A stretch of 64,000 nt of DNA, from the NCBI GenBank assembly GCA_028287785.1, contig JAQBOZ010000020.1, positions 66,738-130,737 on the forward strand, read 5' to 3'. Shown piece by piece: positions 1,549 through 60,112 of the stretch (positions within the stretch are counted from its first letter, which is position 1; every line of letters begins with the position of its first letter). The notes beneath the pieces are model-generated. The model saw only the letters and a program-made list of their open reading frames with translations. It did not search any database and was not told the DNA's origin. The position numbers and the translations under genes are program-made. Source of the stretch: Chlorobiota bacterium. Lineage in GTDB: Bacteria; Bacteroidota; Ignavibacteria; OLB7.

Positions 1549-3816
1549 ATGATCAAGCGCGAAGAAGCACTTGAGTACCATCGGATGGGACGACGCGGCA
1601 AGATGGAAGTCGTCTCCACCAAACCAGTTTCCACGCAGCGCGATCTTTCGCTGGCCTACAGCCCCGGCGTTGCCGAGCCATGCCGGGAGATCGCGGCCGA
1701 TGAGGAGAAGGTGTACGAGTACACCGCAAAGGGAAATCTCGTCGGGGTGATATCGAACGGAACGGCGGTCCTCGGCCTCGGCAATATCGGTCCATCCGCC
1801 AGCAAGCCGGTGATGGAAGGCAAAGGGGTCCTCTTCAAGAAATTCGCCGATATCGATGTCTTCGATATCGAGATGACCCCGACCGACCCGAAAGTGCTGA
1901 TCGAGGCGATCGCCGCGCTGGAACCGACGTTCGGCGGCATCAACCTGGAGGATATAAAATCGCCGGAATGCTTCGAGGTGGAGGAGGCGCTCAAGGCCAG
2001 AATGAACATCCCGGTCTTCCATGACGATCAGCACGGCACCGCCATCATCTCCGGCGCGGCCCTGATCAACGCCCTGGAGATTCAGAAGAAGAAGATCGAG
2101 GATGTCAGCATCATTGTCTCCGGCGCGGGGGCGGCCGCCATAAGCTGCTCGCGATTCTACGTGCTGCTGGGGGCGCGGATCGAGAACATCTACATGTGCG
2201 ATTCGAAGGGGCTGATCCACAAACACCGCAACGATCTGAACAAATACAAGGAAGAATTCGCCAACGGTGACGGGCCGGCCACGCTCGGCGACATGCTGAA
2301 CGGCGCCGATGTCTTTATCGGCCTTTCCCAGGCTGGGCTGGTGACCAGGGAGATGATCGTCTCGATGGCCCCCCGGCCCATTGTCTTCGCGATGGCGAAC
2401 CCCGATCCGGAGATCAGCTATGAGGATGCCACGTCGGTGCGGAACGATATCATCATGGCAACCGGCCGGAGCGATTACCCGAACCAGGTGAACAACGTTC
2501 TGGGATTTCCCTTCATCTTCCGCGGCGCGCTCGATGTCCGCGCCCGCGCCATCAACGATCACATGAAGCTGGCCGCCGCGCAGGCAATCGCGCAGCTCGC
2601 GCGGGAGGATGTGATAGACTCGGTCATCCGCAGCTATGGCGACAAGCCGCTCAGCTTCGGCCCCGACTACATCATCCCGAAACCGTTCGATCAGCGCGTG
2701 CTCCTCTGGGTTGCCCCGGCGGTCGCCCGCGCCGCGATCGAGAGCGGCGTTGCCCGCAAGCCGATCCTGGACTGGGAGGAGTATCACGATGAGCTGGAGA
2801 CGCGGCTCGGGAAATCGCGCGGGTTCATGGTGCCGATCATCAACCGCGCGCAGTCGCGACGCCCGCTCAAGAAGGTGGTGCTGCCGGAAGGGGAGGAGGT
2901 GTCGGTCCTGCGAGCGGCGCAGCGCGTGGTGGAGGAGAAGATCGCCATCCCCGTGCTGCTTGGCCGGCCCAATCTGATCGCCGCGCTCGCCGCCGAAAAC
3001 CATATCGACCTGACCGGCGCGGAGATCATCAACCCGATGGAGGATGCCCGGCGTGGTGAATATCAGGAGGCGTTCTTCCAGCTTCGCGCGCGGAAGGGGA
3101 CAACCCTGGCGACCGCGCGGCGCCTGATGCAGCGGACGATGTACTACGGGCTGATGATGGTTCGCATGGACCATGCCGATGGCCTGGTTGCCGGCGCGTC
3201 GATATCCTATCCCGATGTCATCCGTCCCGCGCTTCAGACCGTGGGGCGCGATAACCGCTACTCACGCGTTGGCGGCCTGTATGTGATGATGCCGAAATCG
3301 GGAGGGCAGTTCTTCCTGGCCGATACCACTGTAAATATCGATCCGACCGCCGAGCAGCTTGCGGAGATTGCGCTGATGGCCTCCGAGACCGCCGCCCGGT
3401 TCGGCGCGACGCCGCGCGTGGCGATGCTCTCCTTCTCCAACTTCGGGGACTCGAAACATCCGAACGCGCTGAAGATGCGCCGCGCCACGGAGCTGGTGAA
3501 ATCCGAGCACCCGCATCTGATGGTCGATGGCGAGATGCACGCGGATATGGCGGTGGTGCCGGAGATGCTGAACGCCACCTATCCGTTCAACGAGCTGGGA
3601 GGGCAGGGGGCCAACGTCCTGATCTTCCCGAACATCGACGCCGGGAATATCGCCTACAAGCTGCTGATGAGGCTTGGGGAATGCGAGGCAATCGGCCCCA
3701 TCCTGATGGGGATGAACAAGCCGGTTCATGTGATTCAGAACTCCAGCCAGGTGCAGGATATCGTCAACATGGTGGCGATCACCGTCACCGAGGTGTGGGA
3801 CCGGGCAGGCGCCTGA
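1549..3816 (+). CDS. maeB: NADP-dependent malic enzyme (malic enzyme domain plus phosphotransacetylase-like C-terminal domain)
   Basis: [58 protein letters not shown], followed by a PTA-like domain. About 755 aa, collinear with E. coli MaeB. ATG at 1549 sits behind AGGAG; the track ORF begins at 1525. Confidence 0.9.
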
Positions 3817-3951: not shown

Positions 3952-4578
3952 ATGGCGGGTGAACGGGCTGATCACGGGACTAGCACCCTGTTTCCGGCCC
4001 GGAACAACAAAGCTCGATCGAACAGATTGGCTGGTAAAACACTTCGGCAACCGCCGACCTCCGACGACCAACTGCTTCGCCTGGTAGCCTCGGGCGACAA
4101 GCAGGCGTTTCTCACGCTCTACGATCGCTATCGCGAACGGTTGTTTACCTATTGCTGTAGAATGATCGGGGACCGGGAGCGCGCCAAGGATGCGATGCAG
4201 GATGCGCTGTTAAAGGCGTACCAGAATGCCGCGATGTACCAGGAGGGAACCAACGTTGCCGCATGGCTCTTCCGGCTGACCCGCAATGTCTGCATCGATG
4301 CGATCCGTGCCCGGAAGGAGCACGATCCGATCGACGATCTGCAACTCGCCGTTCAGGAGCGCGCTCCCGATGTGATGCTGCAGGATGCGTTGACCGAGGA
4401 GATCGAACGACTTCCGGAGATATATCGCGAGGCGGTCGTTCTGCGTGATGTGCAGGGGCACTCCTATGATGAAATCGCGAAGATCACCGGGACGGCGATA
4501 TCAACCGTCAAGTTCAGGATCTTCAAGGCCCGCGACACATTGCGCCAACGTTTAGCCATTTACCTGAAAGATCAATGA
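3952..4578 (+). CDS. ECF-family RNA polymerase sigma-70 factor
   Basis: Region 2 (FLTLYDRYRERLFTYCCRMIGDRERAKDAMQDALLKAY...AWLFRLTRNVCIDAIR) and region 4 (YREAVVLRDVQGHSYDEIAKITGTAISTVKFRIFKAR). ATG verified at 3952; the track ORF begins upstream at 3829. Confidence 0.85.
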   Translation: MAGERADHGTSTLFPARNNKARSNRLAGKTLRQPPTSDDQLLRLVASGDKQAFLTLYDRYRERLFTYCCRMIGDRERAKDAMQDALLKAYQNAAMYQEGTNVAAWLFRLTRNVCIDAIRARKEHDPIDDLQLAVQERAPDVMLQDALTEEIERLPEIYREAVVLRDVQGHSYDEIAKITGTAISTVKFRIFKARDTLRQRLAIYLKDQ

Positions 4579-5295: not shown

Positions 5296-7899
5296 CTATT
5301 CCGCTCGCCTCAGCCGGATCACCGGATGCCGCGATGACTCGCCACCGATGCTGATGATCTCCTCCGGCGCAACCCGCGCCAGACGCCGCGAGGCAAGCTG
5401 CGCCCGATCGAACTCCACGCGATATTCCCCCGCCGCCACGCCGGTGATCAGCATCGTCCCGTCGGCGAACACCTCGCCATCGTACAACGCGCTGCCGGAA
5501 ACCGCCGCCAGTTGCACCCGAAGCCCGTTCAGATGCCCCCCCGCGGTTTCCCCCGCGACCGAATCAGCGGCCACGAGACACCGACCGGCAACATCGCCCC
5601 CCTCCACATAGGGCACATCCACCGCCACCGCCGCGCCGGGGGAGGAGAAGACGCCATAGCGGAGATGGCTGGGAAAAAGTCCCTCCGGCGCGTAATCCCA
5701 TCGGTCCACATCCAGCACCCAGACCATGTTCGGCGTCAGCAGAGGGAACTCCCCTTCCTCCGCGGTAAGCTCGGTGTTCCCCTGGCGGAGCCGCGCGTGG
5801 GGCGCCGGCAGATCCTCCTCGCCATCGTCGCGAACGCCGTTGCCGTTCCGATCCCTGAACGCCCGTACAACAACCGCCGAACGCCCCAGCGCATAATCGG
5901 GCGAGAGGAGAACGCCGTTGCCCGTGAAGGCCACGCTCCCCTGGGCGAACATCGTGCTGGTGGTGGCCGCCGTGCCGGCCTGATGATCCGCGAAGGCGAA
6001 TATCCGCGCGGGAGCAAAGTTCAGCTCAAGCTGCGCGGTGATTGCCCCTCGCGACCATTGAAGATTGGGAACGGAATACCCGACGCTGATCCCCATGAAC
6101 CCGGTCAGGCGGAGATATCCCGTCATATCGAGCAGCGGAAGCGACCGGGTGCGATAATCATATGTGCCGCCGATGCTGACCAGCGTCCCCCGCAACGGCG
6201 TCGCAATCAGTCGGAACACGCTCTGAACGCCGCCGCTCCGCCCCGCGCTGTCGATTTCGCCACCGCCGCCGCCGCCAACCGCGCGCGCGAATGTCGTGGA
6301 GAGGAACGCGGTCACCCCCGCCAGATAGCCGGAGATCTGCGGAGTGGCCGTCACGAAATATCCGTTTCCCCGATGCTCCACCCGCCCGGCGCCGCCAATC
6401 GACACCTGCCCAAGCGGAATATTGGCGGAGACCGTGGAGATAAAGGAGCGGTCACGCAGTGAAAGGGAATCGACCGACAGCCGGAACGATCTGTTCCCCG
6501 GCGTCACCGAGGATATCTCGCCGGAAAAGAGGCGGGAAAGAGGCCGGTAGCGCAGCCCCAGCGTGCTCGATTCCCCCATCCATATCGTGGCAAATGTGCT
6601 GGCCGAAACGCTGTCGGCGGTGATGGCGCCATATGCCGAGGGACGCAGCAGGCCGTCCACGCCAACGGTCAGGCGCGACAGCAACCCGAAATCGACGCGC
6701 CCCTCGCCGCCGATCCTCGATCCGGCGGCGAGCCGCTCGCTCCCGCCACGCACGGTATAATCCAGCTCCCCGGAGGGAATGACATGCCCATCAACCTGCA
6801 CCCGTCGCTCCTCCGTGAGGATCTCCCCGTACGGCCCCACAAACCTGAGCAGCCGTTCGATTGTTCCATATCCCACCGGGACCGTGAAAGAATAATATCC
6901 CAGGCTGTCGGCCCTGGTCACATCGGCCAGATGCGTTCCATCGTATAATTCCACAGTCCATCCCGGACGCGTCTGCCCCTGGATTTCATGTTCCATAAAG
7001 CCGCCGCGGGGAATGATCGGGACATTGGAGATCTCGGCGGCATACATCTGCGTCCCCGCCACAGGAATTCTTCCGATCGTGACTTTTCTCAGCGGCGAAT
7101 ATTCCGGCGCGATAAAACGCCATGTCCAGGAATTGAGCGCAACCAGAGGCGTTTGAGCGCCGAACGCCCCGCGACGCATTATCGCCGAGGTATTGATTTC
7201 AGCCTCACCGAACAGCAGTTCGCCGCCAATTCCCACGGAGGCATTGGAGAGATTATTTCTGGAATTCAGATTATTCGATATGGTCCAGTCGATCATCGGC
7301 GCGCCGATCAATGAGCGATTCACGGATATTTCCGGAACCGGATCGCCCGGCGATGTCTTGTCCAGCAGCAGCGATGCGTAACGCTGGTGATTCCGGCTCC
7401 ACTGCACAACCGGCAGCCGTTCATCCTGGGCAATCAGCAGCGTGAGCTTCGATATCCGGAAATTCGCCTGGATTCCGAGAACCCGAAAGAACAGCGACTG
7501 TTCGATATACAACTCGCCGCCAACCAGGCGGATTTGAGCCGCGGGAAACGACACGGTATCCCTTCCACGTGTGGCGGTATTCGAGCGACGCGAAAATTCA
7601 AAATGCTGATCGGACGGGAACGATCCCTCAAGGGTCGAATTATCGGAGGAAATTCCGGCGGGAATGCGGAGAAAATCGCAAAGCGAGAGATAGGGGAGAA
7701 ACAGCGTATCGCCGGAGAACTGAGCAACAAAATCATGACGGGCAATGCCGGCCACCTCGGCCTGCGCCACCCCTTCCTCCAGCGGATCGGGTGGGATGGG
7801 ATCGGCGCCACTGTCAGGGGTTTTTCCCGTTCTGTCGCCGGCCATCGATATATTCGGAACCAGAACCAGCAGGAGCAGAATAAGTGATAGTATGTTCAT
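5296..7899 (-). CDS. Putative fimbrial usher-like outer-membrane protein of the chaperone-usher operon
   Basis: 867 aa with an N-terminal signal peptide (MNILSLILLLLVLVPNISMA). Start ATG overlaps the upstream pilin stop as ATGA, suggesting translational coupling. Size (about 830-880 aa) and position after pilin-chaperone-pilin fit an usher. No usher motif was verified directly. Confidence 0.45.
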   Translation of the reverse strand: MNILSLILLLLVLVPNISMAGDRTGKTPDSGADPIPPDPLEEGVAQAEVAGIARHDFVAQFSGDTLFLPYLSLCDFLRIPAGISSDNSTLEGSFPSDQHFEFSRRSNTATRGRDTVSFPAAQIRLVGGELYIEQSLFFRVLGIQANFRISKLTLLIAQDERLPVVQWSRNHQRYASLLLDKTSPGDPVPEISVNRSLIGAPMIDWTISNNLNSRNNLSNASVGIGGELLFGEAEINTSAIMRRGAFGAQTPLVALNSWTWRFIAPEYSPLRKVTIGRIPVAGTQMYAAEISNVPIIPRGGFMEHEIQGQTRPGWTVELYDGTHLADVTRADSLGYYSFTVPVGYGTIERLLRFVGPYGEILTEERRVQVDGHVIPSGELDYTVRGGSERLAAGSRIGGEGRVDFGLLSRLTVGVDGLLRPSAYGAITADSVSASTFATIWMGESSTLGLRYRPLSRLFSGEISSVTPGNRSFRLSVDSLSLRDRSFISTVSANIPLGQVSIGGAGRVEHRGNGYFVTATPQISGYLAGVTAFLSTTFARAVGGGGGGEIDSAGRSGGVQSVFRLIATPLRGTLVSIGGTYDYRTRSLPLLDMTGYLRLTGFMGISVGYSVPNLQWSRGAITAQLELNFAPARIFAFADHQAGTAATTSTMFAQGSVAFTGNGVLLSPDYALGRSAVVVRAFRDRNGNGVRDDGEEDLPAPHARLRQGNTELTAEEGEFPLLTPNMVWVLDVDRWDYAPEGLFPSHLRYGVFSSPGAAVAVDVPYVEGGDVAGRCLVAADSVAGETAGGHLNGLRVQLAAVSGSALYDGEVFADGTMLITGVAAGEYRVEFDRAQLASRRLARVAPEEIISIGGESSRHPVIRLRRAE

Positions 7900-54267: not shown

Positions 54268-55155
54268 TCACTTGATCGGGATCAGGATATCCATTTCCGA
54301 ATCCTCGGCGGTCGGGTTGAACCGCTCATCGTACAGCTCAAGATCCGGCCCCTCCGACATCTCGTACGGGGCGTTCGGCCGCCACGAGCCGTAGACGTAG
54401 TTCATCGTCTCCCCCAGCCGGTGCAGCGGCCCCTTGTGGGTGAACACCGCGTACCGCTGCTCCGGGATGGTGCGGGCGGTCATCCCCTCCGGGATCGCGT
54501 CCAGCGATTGCACCTCCGTGCAGGCCATGTAGTAGAACTCGTCCTCATGCGTGCGCTTCATCTCAGGGCTCAGCGCATCGCACAGGCCGTAGCGTGTATC
54601 CCCGGCGGGGTTCCGGATCTCGCCGATCCGGCCGTTGAACTCATCCCAGAGCATCGGCAGCACCTGCATGCTGTTCGCGTCGGGCGAGAGGATCGATATG
54701 AACTGCTTCCCCAGCCCCACCAGATTCATCTCCCCGACCACCTTGATCGTTGGCTCCATTGTGATTCCTCCAAAACGTTGTAGTAGATATTCCTCGGTAA
54801 TCCGCGGCCTTCCGATACAACGGGCCGACTCGATGCCGCTCCGCCGGCACTCCCCCGGCGTTATCCCGAACCGCGCCTTGAACGCCCGCGTAAACGCCTC
54901 CTGCGACTCGAACCCGTGGTCCCACGCAACATCGCCGATCTTCTTCCCTGTCCCCGCAAGCTCCCGCGCGGCCAGCGTCAGACGCCGTCCCCGGACATAC
55001 CCCCTCACCGACTCCCCCACCAGCGCCCCGAAAATCCGCTGGAAATGCCAGACGGAAAACGCGGCCTCCCTGGCTATCGATTCCAGGGGAAGATCGCCGA
55101 GAATGTTCTCCTCGATAAAATCAAGCGCGCGCTGTATCCGTTCGATATGATTCAT
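54268..55155 (-). CDS. AraC-family transcriptional regulator with GyrI-like effector-binding domain
   Basis: N-terminal AraC HTHs (LESIAREAAFSVWHFQRIF...; IGDVAWDHGFESQEAFTRAFKARFGITPGE). C-terminal GyrI-like domain. Confidence 0.8.
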   Translation of the reverse strand: MNHIERIQRALDFIEENILGDLPLESIAREAAFSVWHFQRIFGALVGESVRGYVRGRRLTLAARELAGTGKKIGDVAWDHGFESQEAFTRAFKARFGITPGECRRSGIESARCIGRPRITEEYLLQRFGGITMEPTIKVVGEMNLVGLGKQFISILSPDANSMQVLPMLWDEFNGRIGEIRNPAGDTRYGLCDALSPEMKRTHEDEFYYMACTEVQSLDAIPEGMTARTIPEQRYAVFTHKGPLHRLGETMNYVYGSWRPNAPYEMSEGPDLELYDERFNPTAEDSEMDILIPIK

Positions 55156-55290
55156 GATTCCGTGTTGATTACCGGACGGCGAAACTACGGCCGGAGAGGG
55201 CCCAACTCTTTGACCGTTTGTGCGATCTCCCCTTCGCTCATTCTTTTTTTCCGTTCCCTCCCTCCGTTGCTTGAACTTGGCGATATTAAA

Positions 55291-55313
55291 GGCACTTATA
55301 TACTTGACTCACC
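55291..55313. repeat. Left terminal inverted repeat of the IS1595-family element
   Basis: ggcacttatatacttgactcacc, reverse-complementary (22/23) to 58961..58983. Preceded by target-site duplication atattaaa (55283..55290). Confidence 0.75.
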
Positions 55314-55337
55314 CGCTATATTTTCGTATATTTGTGC

Positions 55338-56279
55338 ATGGAAAAGGAAAACTACACACCGCGCACCCTTCAGGAAGCAATCGTCCACTACTCCAACCCG
55401 GATAATGCACTCGCATTTATGATCCGTCTTCGGTGGCCGGACGGTATCACGTGCCCCCGTTGCGGATCGTGCGAGCATAGCTTTTTGACGACGCGCCGCG
55501 TGTGGAAGTGCAAGGGATGTAAGAAGCAGTTCTCCGTTAAGGTCGGCACCATCTTCGAGGATTCTCCGCTCGGTCTGAACACGTGGCTTGCCGCCGTGTG
55601 GCTCATCACGAACGCCAAGAACGGCGTAAGCTCATGCGAGATTGCGCGGGCACTTGGCATCACACAAAAGAGCGCGTGGTTCGTCTTGCATCGTATCCGC
55701 ATCGCGATGGAAACGGGCACCATTGAGAAGCTGAAGGGCCAGGTTGAAGCCGATGAAACGTACATCGGCGGCAAGTACGGGAACATGCACAGGATCAAGC
55801 GCGCTCAAAAGGAGCAGGGACGCGGCGCTGTCGGGAAGGTTATCGTGATGGGGTTCTTGGAGCGTGACGGCGCGGTACGGGCAAAGGTCGTGAAGAGCAT
55901 CAAGAAGACCATCTTGCACGCGGAAGTCCGGCTGAACGTCGAAGCTGGTACGGAGTTGCTTACCGACAACCTTGCGAGCTACGAGGGCTTGGAGCCGGAA
56001 TACACGCACGAGAGCGTCAACCACGCCGCTGAACAGTATGTACGGGGCCATGTGCATACCAACGGCATAGAGAACTTCTGGAGCTTGCTCAAGCGGACGC
56101 TGAAGGGCACGTATGCGCAGGTTGAGTCCCATCACCTTCAGGCATATCTTGACGAACAGATATTGCGGTTCAATCTTCGCAAGGGAACGGATAAGAGCCG
56201 GTTCTTGCGCGTGGTTGGTGGAGTGTCGGGAAAGAGACTAACTTACAAGCAGTTGATTGGTCGGGGTGGTAACATCTAG
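55338..56279 (+). CDS. IS1595-family transposase (N-terminal zinc-ribbon plus ISXO2-like DDE domain)
   Basis: CPRCGS...CKGCKKQFSVKVGTIFEDS zinc ribbon. DETYIGGK and downstream DDE-domain residues. ATG at 55338; the track ORF begins at a TTG at 55332. Confidence 0.85.
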   Translation: MEKENYTPRTLQEAIVHYSNPDNALAFMIRLRWPDGITCPRCGSCEHSFLTTRRVWKCKGCKKQFSVKVGTIFEDSPLGLNTWLAAVWLITNAKNGVSSCEIARALGITQKSAWFVLHRIRIAMETGTIEKLKGQVEADETYIGGKYGNMHRIKRAQKEQGRGAVGKVIVMGFLERDGAVRAKVVKSIKKTILHAEVRLNVEAGTELLTDNLASYEGLEPEYTHESVNHAAEQYVRGHVHTNGIENFWSLLKRTLKGTYAQVESHHLQAYLDEQILRFNLRKGTDKSRFLRVVGGVSGKRLTYKQLIGRGGNI

Positions 56280-56290
56280 GAGGTACGGCA

Positions 56291-56464
56291 ATGGATAAGG
56301 AAGGTGATGATAAGAATCATCAATCAGAGGAATACACTCGCTTTGAACAGGCGATGCGAACGATTCTAGGGGCACCGAAGAAGAAGGTTGACGCGAAGAT
56401 GGAGGAATTAAAGAAGAAGCGCAAAGGGATAAATAAAAAAGGCAGTACAGATAAGGATAGATAA
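56291..56464 (+). CDS. Small basic hypothetical protein (57 aa) inside the IS element
   Basis: ATG 12 nt after the transposase stop. Lys-rich. Not in the supplied ORF track; read directly from the sequence. Confidence 0.3.
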   Translation: MDKEGDDKNHQSEEYTRFEQAMRTILGAPKKKVDAKMEELKKKRKGINKKGSTDKDR

Positions 56465-56499
56465 AGGGTTCATATAGAGCATTCGCTCAATATGCGCAC

Positions 56500-57123
56500 T
56501 TATTTCTTTGTGTTCAATGCACGAATTCGCTCTGTCAGTTTATATACCCCAGTTGATGGATTCCCGCCAATGGTGCTATGTCTCTCGTGCATCTTGTCTA
56601 ATTCAGAGGCCCTTGTAACTGCAAGCTCATAGTTTGGCTGAATCTGATCAAGTGGAATGAGCTTTACATAACCCGGCAAGTGTGTTTTGCAATGGGATTG
56701 AACCACTCCTCTATCAATATAAGCTCGGTGATCGGCAAAATGCAGGTATACCCAAAGCTCAAAGCAAGGATTCGATATTGCTAGCTGTATGTTGTGCGCA
56801 TTAGCCTGCTGACATGCATCTGCAATATTAGGATGCTCATCGACATCGAAGCAGCACCATACTTCATCATACTTTAGATTATTATCCTTTTCTCTTCTTG
56901 CTTCCTGTTCCGCTCTTTTCTTCTCAGCTACAGCTGCTTCAACTAGGGCTTTTGGTACCATACCACATTCGCCAATCTTGATCTCAACGAGCCGGTTACG
57001 TTCCATCCTGCAAAAAGCAATGAAATACTCACGTTCGGTAACAACTCCTTCGCAGAGAATTAGCAGTCTTTTTTGAACATCCCGAAATGGTCTTCGGCGA
57101 GCAAGGCTAGCTTTTCGCTTCAC
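56500..57123 (-). CDS. RloB-like (AbiLii-like) protein
   Basis: RloB-family N-terminus ...RLLILCEGVVTEREYF, central DEVWCCFDVDEH, and LAISNPCFELWVYLHF. GTG start at 57123 overlaps the upstream ATPase gene by 17 bp. Confidence 0.75.
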   Translation of the reverse strand: MKRKASLARRRPFRDVQKRLLILCEGVVTEREYFIAFCRMERNRLVEIKIGECGMVPKALVEAAVAEKKRAEQEARREKDNNLKYDEVWCCFDVDEHPNIADACQQANAHNIQLAISNPCFELWVYLHFADHRAYIDRGVVQSHCKTHLPGYVKLIPLDQIQPNYELAVTRASELDKMHERHSTIGGNPSTGVYKLTERIRALNTKK

Positions 57124-58393
57124 TCTCTCCCTCCACTATCTTACGGAACAATGAAGATGATCCAACAAATGGAATTGCACCATATCTACCTTGGAGGTAT
57201 CCACGCCGCAAGTTCTCGTTTGGGCGAGTCTTAAAGTCTGACAGCGGATAGAGGTCGGTCGCGCCTGAAGCGTCCTTCTCCGTAAACCAAATTTGATCTC
57301 TCCGAAGTAAATCGGGATCAAGTAGCGTTGAATCGTGTGTACTGAAAATTAGTTGAGCGCCATTATCATTCTCATCAGCATTAACAAGTTCGATGATGTG
57401 CCGAGCTACAATAGGATGCAAACTTGCTTCGAGTTCATCAACAAGAAGAACGCCGCCATTTTCAATCTGGTTAATTAACGGCCCTAGAAGGGATAGGTAA
57501 GCTCGTGTCCCATCGGATTCATCTTCAAGAGGAAGCGATACTGAATCTCCACTTCCGGTAGAATGGCGTAACGTTGCAGAGGGGATCATTTGTCCCTTCA
57601 TTGTAGTCGGTGGCGCGTGAATAATATCTGCCATCTGAAAATACGCCTTCATATGCTCTGCCATATCCCTATCGGCTGTATCCATCCCTACTATGCCAAG
57701 ATCGGCCATTGTAAGTAGTTTGGCAATGATTTCACCATACTCTGGCTTCTTGCATCGATCCAATGTGTGCAATCTATGCAGCTCACGCGTCTCATTTCGA
57801 AGGAATAGAACTTGACGCTGAAACCAGTTATATACTGGAACAAGCTCCTCGTTGCCATTCTGTACAGCGGCCGACAGAAACAAGCTATTTGTCCGAGTGA
57901 GCTTTGTTAACGAAGCACGTCCGGCAATTCGGCGTTTGAATTCAAACTGATTACCAGGTGACCGTCTAAACCATTCCTGCCGCACCTTGTTAGGATAAGC
58001 ATATAGCCACTCTGAAAGTATTGAGGTTGAATCCTGTTCGAATCCATACTTGTAGCGTACACCGCCTATGATAGCGTCAACTTCAAAGGCTGATGGGGCA
58101 CCGTTGAATGCAGGGTCTAATTTGAACGGGAAGTATGGGATTGGCCCATCAACGCTCCAGTCTTTATGGGAGTGGACTACAGCTAGCCGCATATAGGATA
58201 AGGCCCGAAGCATATTGGTCTTGCCTGAAGCGTTAGGCCCGTAAATAGCGGCTGCTTTGACTAAGTTGACGCCAATACGCTCCTTGGTGGGAATAATCGA
58301 CATGACCCCCCCTTGCAGAGGGCTAGCTACCAAGGTTAGTTCTTTCTCGTCTCGGATGGACCTATAGTTGCGGACGCGAAAGCTAATAAGCAT
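57107..58393 (-). CDS. AAA-family ATPase (AAA_21/AAA_15 type; RloA/AbiLi-like)
   Basis: Walker A YGPNASGKTN. ABC/SMC-like Walker B/D-loop VLLVDELEASLHP. About 428 aa. Immediately upstream of and overlapping the RloB-like gene. Confidence 0.8.
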   Translation of the reverse strand: MLISFRVRNYRSIRDEKELTLVASPLQGGVMSIIPTKERIGVNLVKAAAIYGPNASGKTNMLRALSYMRLAVVHSHKDWSVDGPIPYFPFKLDPAFNGAPSAFEVDAIIGGVRYKYGFEQDSTSILSEWLYAYPNKVRQEWFRRSPGNQFEFKRRIAGRASLTKLTRTNSLFLSAAVQNGNEELVPVYNWFQRQVLFLRNETRELHRLHTLDRCKKPEYGEIIAKLLTMADLGIVGMDTADRDMAEHMKAYFQMADIIHAPPTTMKGQMIPSATLRHSTGSGDSVSLPLEDESDGTRAYLSLLGPLINQIENGGVLLVDELEASLHPIVARHIIELVNADENDNGAQLIFSTHDSTLLDPDLLRRDQIWFTEKDASGATDLYPLSDFKTRPNENLRRGYLQGRYGAIPFVGSSSLFRKIVEGESEAKS

Positions 58394-58541
58394 AAGGTGA
58401 CCTGAGATAGGATTAGACGATATTGCGGACTAGACGCAATTTAGGTAAGAAAGTTGCAATTATCCAATGTAGATCGCATTACTATGCAATGATGGATGCT
58501 ATCGCCTCGTCCAAAGCAATCTGAACGAGGCGATACCCTCG

Positions 58542-58754
58542 CTACCCCCGCTCCAACTCCCCCGCGATACTCGCAAGCTCATCGCTCACATAGTCGCAAA
58601 GCCACGTCCGTTCCCCTAGCTCTGTAGAGTAGTCGCGGCCTGCCACATCGAACGAATCACGTAAACAGCCGACGAACGACCGGATACGGTGGAGGCGATC
58701 CACGGGATCAAGCGGGGGATCGGGAGATGATGGTGTGATTTCTGAATGGTCCAT
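58542..58754 (-). CDS. Small hypothetical protein inside the IS element
   Basis: 70-aa ORF between the ATPase gene and the right TIR. No recognisable motif. Confidence 0.3.
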   Translation of the reverse strand: MDHSEITPSSPDPPLDPVDRLHRIRSFVGCLRDSFDVAGRDYSTELGERTWLCDYVSDELASIAGELERG

Positions 58755-58960
58755 AGTGCATTTAGATGAAGATAATCCCGACTGTTATCTACGTCGCACT
58801 AACAACGCTCCGAGCCTCGCGGACATCGGAACAGTCGGGATAGAAGGAAGAATCAGAGGCGCGTCATTGCGCTGTCAGTGCTACGTGACGCGGCCAATGT
58901 AGACGACTGAAATATACCGGCAATGGATCGTATACAGTTGAATCTAACCTTTTTTTCGGT

Positions 58961-58983
58961 GGTGAGTCAAGTATATAAATGCC
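58961..58983. repeat. Right terminal inverted repeat of the IS1595-family element
   Basis: ggtgagtcaagtatataaatgcc, followed by target-site duplication atattaaa (58984..58991). Confidence 0.75.
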
Positions 58984-59128
58984 ATATTAAACGCTACAAT
59001 TGCGCGCTCACGATGGAGAGATGGCGACCGATTCCGACCGGAACGGCCCGGCTCAACCTTCCCCGCCAATGTGCATCGAACGAACAATGACCGGACAAAC
59101 AGAACCCTTATCAGTGCCGAACAGAACC

Positions 59129-60112
59129 ATGAGCCCATTCGCCTTTCAACTGTTCGCCCTTACGCTCCTCCTCCTTTCGGGCGGGCACGCGGCGGCGCAG
59201 CAGGATACATCGATCGTCCGCATCGACACGCTCAAACCGAATGTGGGGAGCGCATTCACCGTCGAGAAGATCGACGGCAGGGTCGATCCCCGCTTCCGCC
59301 ACCTGATCAAGCGCCTGGCCGATGATGGCTGGCCGGAACAGTGGGTGGTGGCGCGCTTCACCGATAAACGCACCGTCTACATCCCGAAGATGGCGACGAT
59401 CAAACCGCGGAAGGAGGGGGCGACAATCACCTCCGATCACTCCGCCTATGCGTGGGTGAACACCGAGGAATCGGCCCAGGCGTGCAGGACGTTTATCGCG
59501 AAGTACGAGCCGATCATGGCCGAGGCGGAGAAGCGCTACGGGGTGGACCGCGAGACGATCGCCGCGTTGATGCGCTGCGAAACCCGCCACGGCACCGTCA
59601 CCGGCGATTACCATGTCTTCAGCGTCTACGCATCGATGGCGCTGATGGGAGAACAGAGCGTGGTTGATACGATGGTGGGACGCGCGAAGCAGCAGCTCAC
59701 CGCGGAGAAGGCCAGCGCCAGGTGGATCGCGTCGGAGGCCGAGCGTATCCGCAACCGCGCGGACAACCGTTCCAGCTGGGCGTACAAGGAGCTGGTGAAC
59801 ATGCTGAAGATCGATCGGAGCGGCTCGGCCGATGCCCTCTCGATCTACGGCTCCTGGGCCGGCGCGTTCGGCTGGTCGCAGTTCCTCCCCTCCTCCTACC
59901 TCCGCAGCGCGGTCGATGGCAATGGCGATCACAAGATCGATCTGTTCAACCCGGCCGATGCCATCCACTCGGTGGCGAACTATCTGAGCAAGGCGGGGTT
60001 CAGGATCGACAACACCGCCAGCCAGGCAAAGGCGATCAGGAGCTACAACAACTCCGGCCCCTACGTGGAATCGATCATGGCGCTCGCCGCCCGCGTCCGG
60101 AAGCATGACTGA
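59129..60112 (+). CDS. Lytic murein transglycosylase (MltB/SLT_2-like)
   Basis: ATG at 59129 (MSPFAFQLFALTLLLLSGGHAAAQ signal peptide); the track ORF begins at a TTG at 59000, 9 nt after the IS target-site duplication. Catalytic-region motifs (ETRHGTVTGDYHVFSVYAS; GAFGWSQFLPSSY). Confidence 0.75.
   Translation: MSPFAFQLFALTLLLLSGGHAAAQQDTSIVRIDTLKPNVGSAFTVEKIDGRVDPRFRHLIKRLADDGWPEQWVVARFTDKRTVYIPKMATIKPRKEGATITSDHSAYAWVNTEESAQACRTFIAKYEPIMAEAEKRYGVDRETIAALMRCETRHGTVTGDYHVFSVYASMALMGEQSVVDTMVGRAKQQLTAEKASARWIASEAERIRNRADNRSSWAYKELVNMLKIDRSGSADALSIYGSWAGAFGWSQFLPSSYLRSAVDGNGDHKIDLFNPADAIHSVANYLSKAGFRIDNTASQAKAIRSYNNSGPYVESIMALAARVRKHD

Follow-up and report, generated by a model that had tools for sequence, protein, structure and literature searches.

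A probable IS1595-family transporter insertion sequence with an AbiL-type ATPase and RloB gene pair as cargo in a Chlorobi-like genome

The locus described here raises the question of what carried an A+T-rich pair of genes, encoding an ATPase and an RloB-family protein, into a G+C-rich stretch of a Chlorobi-like metagenome-assembled genome (MAG), and of what that pair does there. The window that was analysed is a 64-kb stretch (64,000 nucleotides) of contig JAQBOZ010000020.1, and an initial annotation of it, made from the letters alone, had proposed an IS1595-family transposon with intact terminal inverted repeats (TIRs), an 8-bp target-site duplication (TSD) and an AbiL-like two-gene module as cargo. 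The follow-up analysis assigns a probability of roughly 0.82 to the reading that positions 55291-58983 (3693 bp) are a single-copy, structurally intact IS1595-family "transporter insertion sequence" (tIS) with AbiL-type cargo.

The limits of the element were placed at these two positions because the TIRs found there are directly abutted by perfect 8-bp copies of ATATTAAA. The left TIR (GGCACTTATATACTTGACTCACC, 55291..55313, plus strand) and the right TIR (GGCATTTATATACTTGACTCACC, 58961..58983, minus strand) are each 23 bp long and complementary at 22 of 23 positions, and a search for TIR-like sequence with up to three mismatches returned only two matches in the window, one at each end of the element, and none in 100 shuffled sequences. 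Across the 64 kb there are just two copies of the octamer ATATTAAA, against 0.36 expected by chance; one lies directly outside the left TIR (55283..55290) and the other directly outside the right TIR (58984..58991). Both the intact repeats and the target duplication of the initial annotation are thus borne out. Joined across the element, the flanks read ...CTTGAACTTGGCG-ATATTAAA-CGCTACAATTGCGCG..., and the insertion point divides a 272-bp divergent intergenic region almost evenly: on one side an AraC/GyrI-like regulator gene starts 135 bp away, and on the other an SLT_2 lytic transglycosylase gene starts 137 bp away. The divergent promoter region (55156-55290 and 58992-59128) is therefore split by the element, and expression of both host genes may have changed. 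A composite or two-element structure was considered and rejected because the window contains no third TIR-like sequence at up to three mismatches. Neither a second transposase gene nor an internal TIR is present between the element ends; one transposase gene lies within a single TIR pair, and the ATPase and RloB passenger genes lie between it and the right TIR, which is the arrangement that defines a tIS.

The transposase gene (55338..56279, plus strand) encodes 313 amino acids from its ATG; the mechanically called open reading frame (ORF) begins at a TTG at 55332, and the public gene call also uses the ATG. Hidden Markov model (HMM) comparisons agreed with the earlier assignment of this protein to the IS1595 type. 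Specifically, it matches the full Pfam profile PF12762 (DDE_Tnp_IS1595, positions 1-153 of 153) at 5.9e-40 and PF12760 (Zn_ribbon_IS1595) at 3.7e-14, as well as the NCBIfam model NF033547 (transpos_IS1595) at 1e-55 and 189 bits, against a curated cut-off of 75 bits. The residues D139, D210, E245/N246 and K252 are present, and in an alignment of 29 homologues no variation is seen in the Asp, Asn and Lys columns. In the proposed mechanism, this DDE transposase, with its zinc ribbon and DDE domain, would recognise the 23-bp TIRs and would have inserted the whole 3693-bp unit into the 272-bp intergenic region, duplicating the 8 bp ATATTAAA.

The cargo pair lies on the minus strand and consists of an ABC-type ATPase of the AAA_21/AAA_15 kind (AbiLi-type, 428 aa, 57107..58393) and an RloB-family protein (AbiLii-type, 207 aa, 56500..57123), a predicted TOPRIM-like nuclease. 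Both proteins matched, by HMM search, the families that the initial annotation had named for them. The ATPase matches PF13304 (AAA_21) at 3.5e-38 and PF13175 (AAA_15) at 9e-12; among the PADLOC defence models its best match is AbiLi (PDLC02335, 1.7e-97, 324 bits), with AriA next at 127 bits and GajA and PtuA also far behind. Its motifs are intact, with a Walker A (GPNASGKT, residues 52-59), a Walker B (VLLVDE, 315-320) and an H-loop-like STH at 351. The RloB protein matches the whole of PF13707 at 7.2e-41 and the PADLOC AbiLii model at 1.9e-26 and 92 bits, and across 32 homologues E25, D95 and the SNPCFELW motif are invariant, with D93 nearly so. An AlphaFold model of this protein (mean predicted local distance difference test score, pLDDT, 83.8) had no significant match by Foldseek in the Protein Data Bank (PDB), and the fold match is not specific; the predicted fold is no more than compatible with TOPRIM. 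A search by sequence for relatives of solved structure returned none for either protein.

The 3' end of the ATPase gene overlaps the start of the RloB gene by 17 bp, as had been noted initially, and the overlapping reading frames suggest co-expression. An overlapping or directly abutting ATPase-RloB pair was also found in three other loci (L088, L089 and L190), none of which has an IS1595 transposase among its called genes, and the recurrence of the pair in such loci indicates that it is an autonomous two-gene unit. The arrangement resembles that of AbiL of Lactococcus lactis (AbiLi/AbiLii; RloA/RloB), in which an ATPase gene of the AAA_21/AAA_15 type is likewise followed by an adjacent, overlapping RloB gene; the best PADLOC models are AbiLi and AbiLii, and the E and DxD motifs are conserved. 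The window pair differs from AbiL in host phylum and vehicle, since it sits in a Chlorobi-like MAG on a tIS, whereas AbiL is borne on a lactococcal plasmid. It differs further from the OLD-family, Gabija and PARIS systems, to which the ATPase matches much more weakly than to AbiL (AriA 127 versus AbiLi 324 bits), and the Pfam family of RloB is distinct from TOPRIM_OLD and DUF4435. The PARIS study groups AbiL with the defence systems that join an AAA15/21 ABC ATPase to a TOPRIM nuclease (Nature 2024; PMC11464382). By analogy with AbiL, OLD, Gabija and PARIS, the ATPase may sense infection and license the RloB nuclease, so that phage growth would be aborted; an ATPase-licensed anti-phage nuclease is the function we infer for the pair.

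The base composition of the element is not uniform, in line with the earlier remark that an A+T-rich cargo points to a foreign origin. The host flanks have a G+C content of 0.62-0.63, and host genes have a G+C content at third codon positions (GC3) of 0.81-0.86. The corresponding values for the transposase gene are 0.56 and 0.73, and the right arm of the element has a G+C content of 0.53, with a GC3 of 0.62 for its 70-aa ORF (S70). The cargo genes and spacers (56465-58541) fall to a G+C content of 0.46, and GC3 is 0.45 in the ATPase gene, 0.38 in the RloB gene and 0.47 in the 57-aa ORF (S57). The cargo is foreign to both the host and the transposase backbone, and its source is much more A+T-rich than either.

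To place the element among its relatives, transposase homologues were collected from genome, metagenome and viral sequence. The transposase family is very large (at least 8000 candidates, all at E<=1e-20), and the nearest relatives are 74-75% identical. A scan of genome collections yielded 80 loci with transposases 50-62% identical, mostly in soil MAGs, for example of Acidobacteriota. Elements were delimited by pairing the sequence upstream of the transposase gene with its own reverse complement downstream, and this gave 44 genome-derived elements of 1717-7246 bp with perfect 8-bp TSDs. A metagenome scan for the TIR (GGCANNTATATACTTGRCTCACC) returned 99 stretches, in which about 13 further complete elements (1646-3547 bp) with a transposase and perfect TSDs were recognised after redundancy was removed, and a scan of viral contigs added one more, of 2109 bp. 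The TIR motif GG(C/T)AAT..ATACTTGAC ends more than 55 related elements. No bare IS of about 1.1 kb was found among more than 55 complete transposase-bearing relatives at 50-75% identity; all are 1.6-7.2 kb long and carry extra genes.

Altogether, 72 perfect 8-bp TSDs were collected for the clade, a count that includes the window element, elements resembling miniature inverted-repeat transposable elements (MITEs) and some duplicate contigs. These TSDs are 67% A+T with the consensus C-W-A-A-T-T-W-G and are often perfectly palindromic (CAAATTTG, CTAATTAG, AAAATTTT, GTTTAAAC); ATATTAAA of the window fits the A+T-rich core of CWAATTWG, but not its outer C and G.

Several side observations were made during this survey. 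The viral-scan element (L189, 3403-5511, IMG/VR UViG_3300023214_000214, 2109 bp, TSD ATAAAATG) is a relative whose contig has been classified as viral. Its TIR agrees letter for letter with that at the left end of the window element, its transposase is 53% identical, and phage or prophage DNA may serve to carry elements of the clade. The survey also returned short elements, 333-1385 bp long, that share the TIR motif and have perfect 8-bp TSDs and no detectable transposase match (L104 3945-4280, the same as L183 and L136; L121 232-669, the same as L135; L154 332-983; L172 1686-2043; L176 669-1001; L184 920-1961; L149 295-1679). They look like MITE-like elements or deletion derivatives of the IS1595 clade, a resemblance that would point to transposases acting in trans in those communities. 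One 7.2-kb relative (L042, 5695-12901) holds a second IS1595 transposase gene in the opposite orientation, and the cargo of other relatives holds ISAZ013-type and IS4/5-type transposases; nested or composite arrangements thus occur in the clade.

The construction of the element became apparent when close relatives were aligned. L005, of which L006 is an identical copy, is a 3452-bp element with the TIR GGCAAGTATATACTTGACTCACC and a perfect TSD (CTTCTTTT), and its architecture is that of the window element: a transposase gene, an S57 homologue, minus-strand cargo, an S70 homologue and a partly conserved right-end non-coding region. Its cargo encodes a HipA_2-like protein and an uncharacterised 297-aa protein, and the cargo on the L007 and P0002 contigs encodes an HTH/Peptidase_M78 protein and an uncharacterised protein. 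L005 and L007 are 96.9% identical over 958 bp, from the left TIR through the transposase gene to within 17 nt of its stop, and their S70-like regions are 97.0% identical as far as the end of the L007 contig. Between these arms, their S57-like ORFs are only distantly similar and the cargo is unrelated. A further comparison came from L102 (Ga0137420_1352789), which is 96.4% identical to window positions 58542-58983 and has the same right TIR. Its insertion site is another one, in another host, where the DNA has a G+C content of 44%, and the match to the window breaks off precisely behind the S70 stop codon; read errors may account for some of the differences between the two.

L102 was also considered as two independent right-end copies, a possibility that was ruled out because the flank and cargo stub at one end recur in reverse complement at the other. 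The flank that follows position 719 corresponds in this way to the one preceding 3609, and the same right arm, with small indels, is found at either end. This fold-back is most likely an assembly or read artefact, and L102 was therefore counted as one copy.

The L005/L007 and L102 comparisons identify the constant parts as the left TIR with the transposase gene, and S70 with the leader and the right TIR. By these alignments, variation begins near the 3' end of the transposase gene (in L005/L007), or where the S57 ORF ends, and extends to the S70 stop. The element is accordingly of modular build, with a left arm (TIR and transposase gene), a right arm (S70, structured leader and TIR) and a variable segment between them, which here comprises S57 and the two-gene AbiL-type module. 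Cargo exchange most likely proceeds by homologous recombination between the arms of co-resident relatives.

These comparisons also bear on whether the ATPase/RloB pair could be an accessory of the transposon itself, used in ATP-dependent target selection or DNA processing in the manner of TnsC- or IstB-type ATPases, and not an AbiL-like immunity system. The pair does lie inside the TIRs, and several transposon families use ATPases. However, it is absent from every other clade member examined, it is found as an autonomous unit in loci with no IS1595 transposase among their called genes, it is compositionally foreign to the backbone, and elements with 97% identical backbones hold unrelated genes in its place. 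An accessory role thus has next to no probability in our estimate, and the pair is read here as AbiL-type cargo.

The remaining backbone features were then considered. The 57-aa and 70-aa ORFs are present as the initial annotation described them; however, they are not incidental, as S57 has relatives in most elements and S70 belongs to the conserved right-end module. S57 (56291..56464, plus strand) is a Lys-rich ORF whose product is one of a family of small basic proteins distributed throughout the clade. Its homologue in L005 was detected at E 2e-13, and jackhmmer found members of the family in 41 of 48 delimited elements, in varying position and orientation and often immediately 3' of a cargo gene. 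Members are about 50-70 aa long; their shared motif, E[FY]xxF[DE]xxhxxhLxVP+xE, precedes a tail rich in Lys and Arg. S70 (58542..58754, minus strand; 96% identical in DNA to L102) is 32% identical (E 3e-8) to a 92-aa ORF of L005 and is restricted to a narrow subfamily made up of the window element, L102, L005 and L007. Neither S57 nor S70 had a credible match in Pfam (E up to 1), NCBIfam, PHROGs or PADLOC.

Between S70 and the right TIR lies a non-coding leader of about 200 bp (58755..58960, minus strand) that is highly conserved in alignments with L005 and L102. It is predicted to fold into a three-way junction with an outer stem at 58775-58786 / 58830-58841. RNAalifold found five pairs with compensatory changes, seen against L005 and drawn from two independent lineages only, and the fold z-score is -3.0. 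The leader is a candidate structured RNA and is offered as a lead; a search of 55000-59300 against Rfam at E<=1 returned no RNA family.

On the other side of S70, homology to related backbones stops in the spacer between S70 and the cargo (58394..58541, minus strand), in which a hairpin with 19-bp arms (58495-58540) stands directly after the S70 stop. A GC-rich hairpin occupies this place in all four elements, with a different sequence in each (window 58495-58540; L102 ~4078-4110; L005 ~3560-3590; L007 ~5757-5791). The position of the hairpin is the exact end of backbone homology, and the hairpin might act in termination or insulation, or mark a boundary of recombination. A promoter and terminator scan found no canonical intrinsic terminators.

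Both TIRs contain TTGACT, with a -10-like hexamer 17-18 nt further inward. At the left end, this gives a promoter-like site (55304..55332, plus strand) consisting of TTGACT inside the TIR, 17 nt and TATATT, upstream of the transposase ATG, which may act as an inward promoter. At the right end, a site on the minus strand within the leader region (58970-58941) reuses the TTGACT of the TIR. The placement of these hexamers suggests inward promoters at both TIRs, with each TIR supplying the -35, that might be occluded by the transposase.

Some results weigh against the reading of the element as an intact tIS with AbiL-type cargo. The initial annotation had proposed searching other genomes for the same TIRs to find further copies and empty sites; more than 55 related elements were delimited, but neither a second AbiL-bearing copy nor a second identical copy, and no empty site, although no dedicated search for empty sites was made. 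When the transposase, the ATPase and the two host proteins that flank the element were looked up by exact sequence, only one further contig came back, Logan SRR13312994_33228, which represents the same locus. AbiL was found inside the same backbone in no other fetched locus; the window ATPase and RloB proteins had no match by tblastn in all 100 TIR-matched metagenome and viral loci, and none by BLASTP among the proteins of 48 genome-derived elements. Furthermore, the nearest ATPase relatives are 44-49% identical, the nearest RloB relative is 58% identical, and these relatives are uncharacterised and not close enough to point to a donor. Lastly, promoter-like sites are not commoner in the region than in shuffled sequence.

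A single known copy with no empty site found, together with a compositionally heterogeneous element, would also fit an immobile relic, in which an ordinary IS1595 element of about 1.2 kb stands beside A+T-rich DNA unrelated to it, the distal "TIR" was left by another copy as a solo end, and the two 8-bp repeats agree by chance. Such a relic should be regarded as very improbable. No TIR-like sequence lies between the two ends, even at three mismatches, and ATATTAAA is found at the two element ends only. The right arm of S70, leader and TIR is conserved in L005, L007 and L102, and it holds the same position relative to a homologous transposase wherever the contig permits a view. L005 is built alike and has a perfect TSD of its own, and more than 55 relatives have perfect 8-bp TSDs around multi-gene units. 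The intact tIS is therefore preferred. Its mobility as a 3693-bp unit rests on the TIRs and TSD and on the behaviour of its relatives, and by these signs it may still be mobile at present.

The cargo of the relatives was also surveyed. Only a minority of 80 cargo proteins of at least 120 aa from the clade match Pfam. The matches include DUF3800 (six), PIN (three), AIPR, Abi_2, HipA_2, Fic, HSDR_N, a trypsin-like protease and two other transposases, as well as DNA methyltransferases of the N6_N4 type, of the C5 type with Vsr, and of the Eco57I/MmeI/TaqI_C type. In an all-against-all comparison of the 71 cargo proteins of at least 150 aa, 44 had no relative among the rest, even by jackhmmer.

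Because this cargo is rich in potential addiction genes (HipA_2, three PIN proteins, Fic, and methyltransferases with Vsr or Eco57I/MmeI domains), the window pair might primarily serve the transposon, as a selfish module for stabilisation or addiction or as a weapon used on other mobile elements, and would then favour retention of the transposon and not protection from phage. The closest RloB homologue is, in addition, located among VapBC and ParDE pairs. Set against this, the best family matches of the window pair are to an abortive-infection system, AbiLi/AbiLii, and the characterised systems of ATPase plus TOPRIM nuclease (OLD, Gabija and PARIS) are triggered by phage (PMC11464382 and established knowledge). 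A primarily selfish role is considered unlikely but deserves some weight, and the two roles do not exclude each other; phage defence is retained here as the preferred function of the pair.

It remains to relate the element to known systems. The tIS class is said to have been defined on the IS1595 family by Siguier, Gagnevin and Chandler in 2009. As in other IS1595 tIS, the window element has a single DDE transposase with an N-terminal zinc ribbon, short TIRs and an 8-bp TSD, and its passengers lie inside the TIRs, with neither a flanking second IS copy nor a resolvase. It is unlike the described IS1595 tIS in that its subfamily has a conserved right-end ORF and a structured leader and its clade a widespread small basic protein, none of which was found described. 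Its TIR starts with GGnnnTTAT, and this element end, GGCAcTTATATAC, resembles the consensus of the ISNwi1 subgroup (ggnnatTAT), to which the element may belong. Among annotated plasmids, IS1595 transposases reach no more than 42% identity, and ISCsp2, at 34%, is the one relative there that has a name.

The initial annotation had called an IS1595 element an uncommon vehicle for a defence pair, and this proved partly right. According to the TnCentral authors, tIS are restricted to the IS1595 and IS66 families (TnCentral preprint), so that IS1595 is one of two IS families with formally recognised passenger-carrying tIS (TnCentral preprint; PMC11891212), and the passengers reported include regulators, methyltransferases and resistance genes (PMC11891212). 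A cargo-bearing IS1595 element is thus already known, and in the present clade cargo is the rule; however, an AbiL-type passenger is unreported in the literature searched, in which no paper tied IS1595 to anti-phage cargo or to an Abi-type ATPase/nuclease pair. The present element adds an AbiL-type pair to the passengers of IS1595 tIS. Possible novelty lies in the scale of the cargo slot and in how much it varies, and in the conserved modules formed by the small protein and the leader.

In Tn7-like and similar defence-cargo transposons, the cargo region is hypervariable and holds many defence, restriction and toxin genes. The window clade shares such a region, but it is far simpler, with one DDE transposase in 1.6-7 kb, and it shows no targeting of an att site, its target being an A+T-rich, roughly palindromic octamer, CWAATTWG. 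It may tentatively be proposed, at less than even odds, that the elements form an undescribed large IS1595 clade, mainly in soil Acidobacteriota and other uncultured bacteria. Its members would never be a bare IS and would carry a cargo slot of hypervariable conflict genes and an S57-like protein, together with S70 and an RNA leader in the window subfamily. Such elements might serve as a minimal dedicated shuttle for defence or addiction genes, in which the small proteins and the leader would couple cargo expression or exchange to transposition.

The window element, read as above, would be a clean natural case of a one-transposase unit moving a complete ATPase/nuclease module of immune type between compositionally very different genomes. 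The S57 family and the right-end leader are testable candidates for control functions encoded by the element. If the broader proposal is true, the clade cargo would be a compact hunting ground for new conflict systems, because many of the cargo proteins have no Pfam match, and small IS1595 elements would be a neglected means of spreading defence, restriction and toxin genes among uncultured bacteria of the soil.

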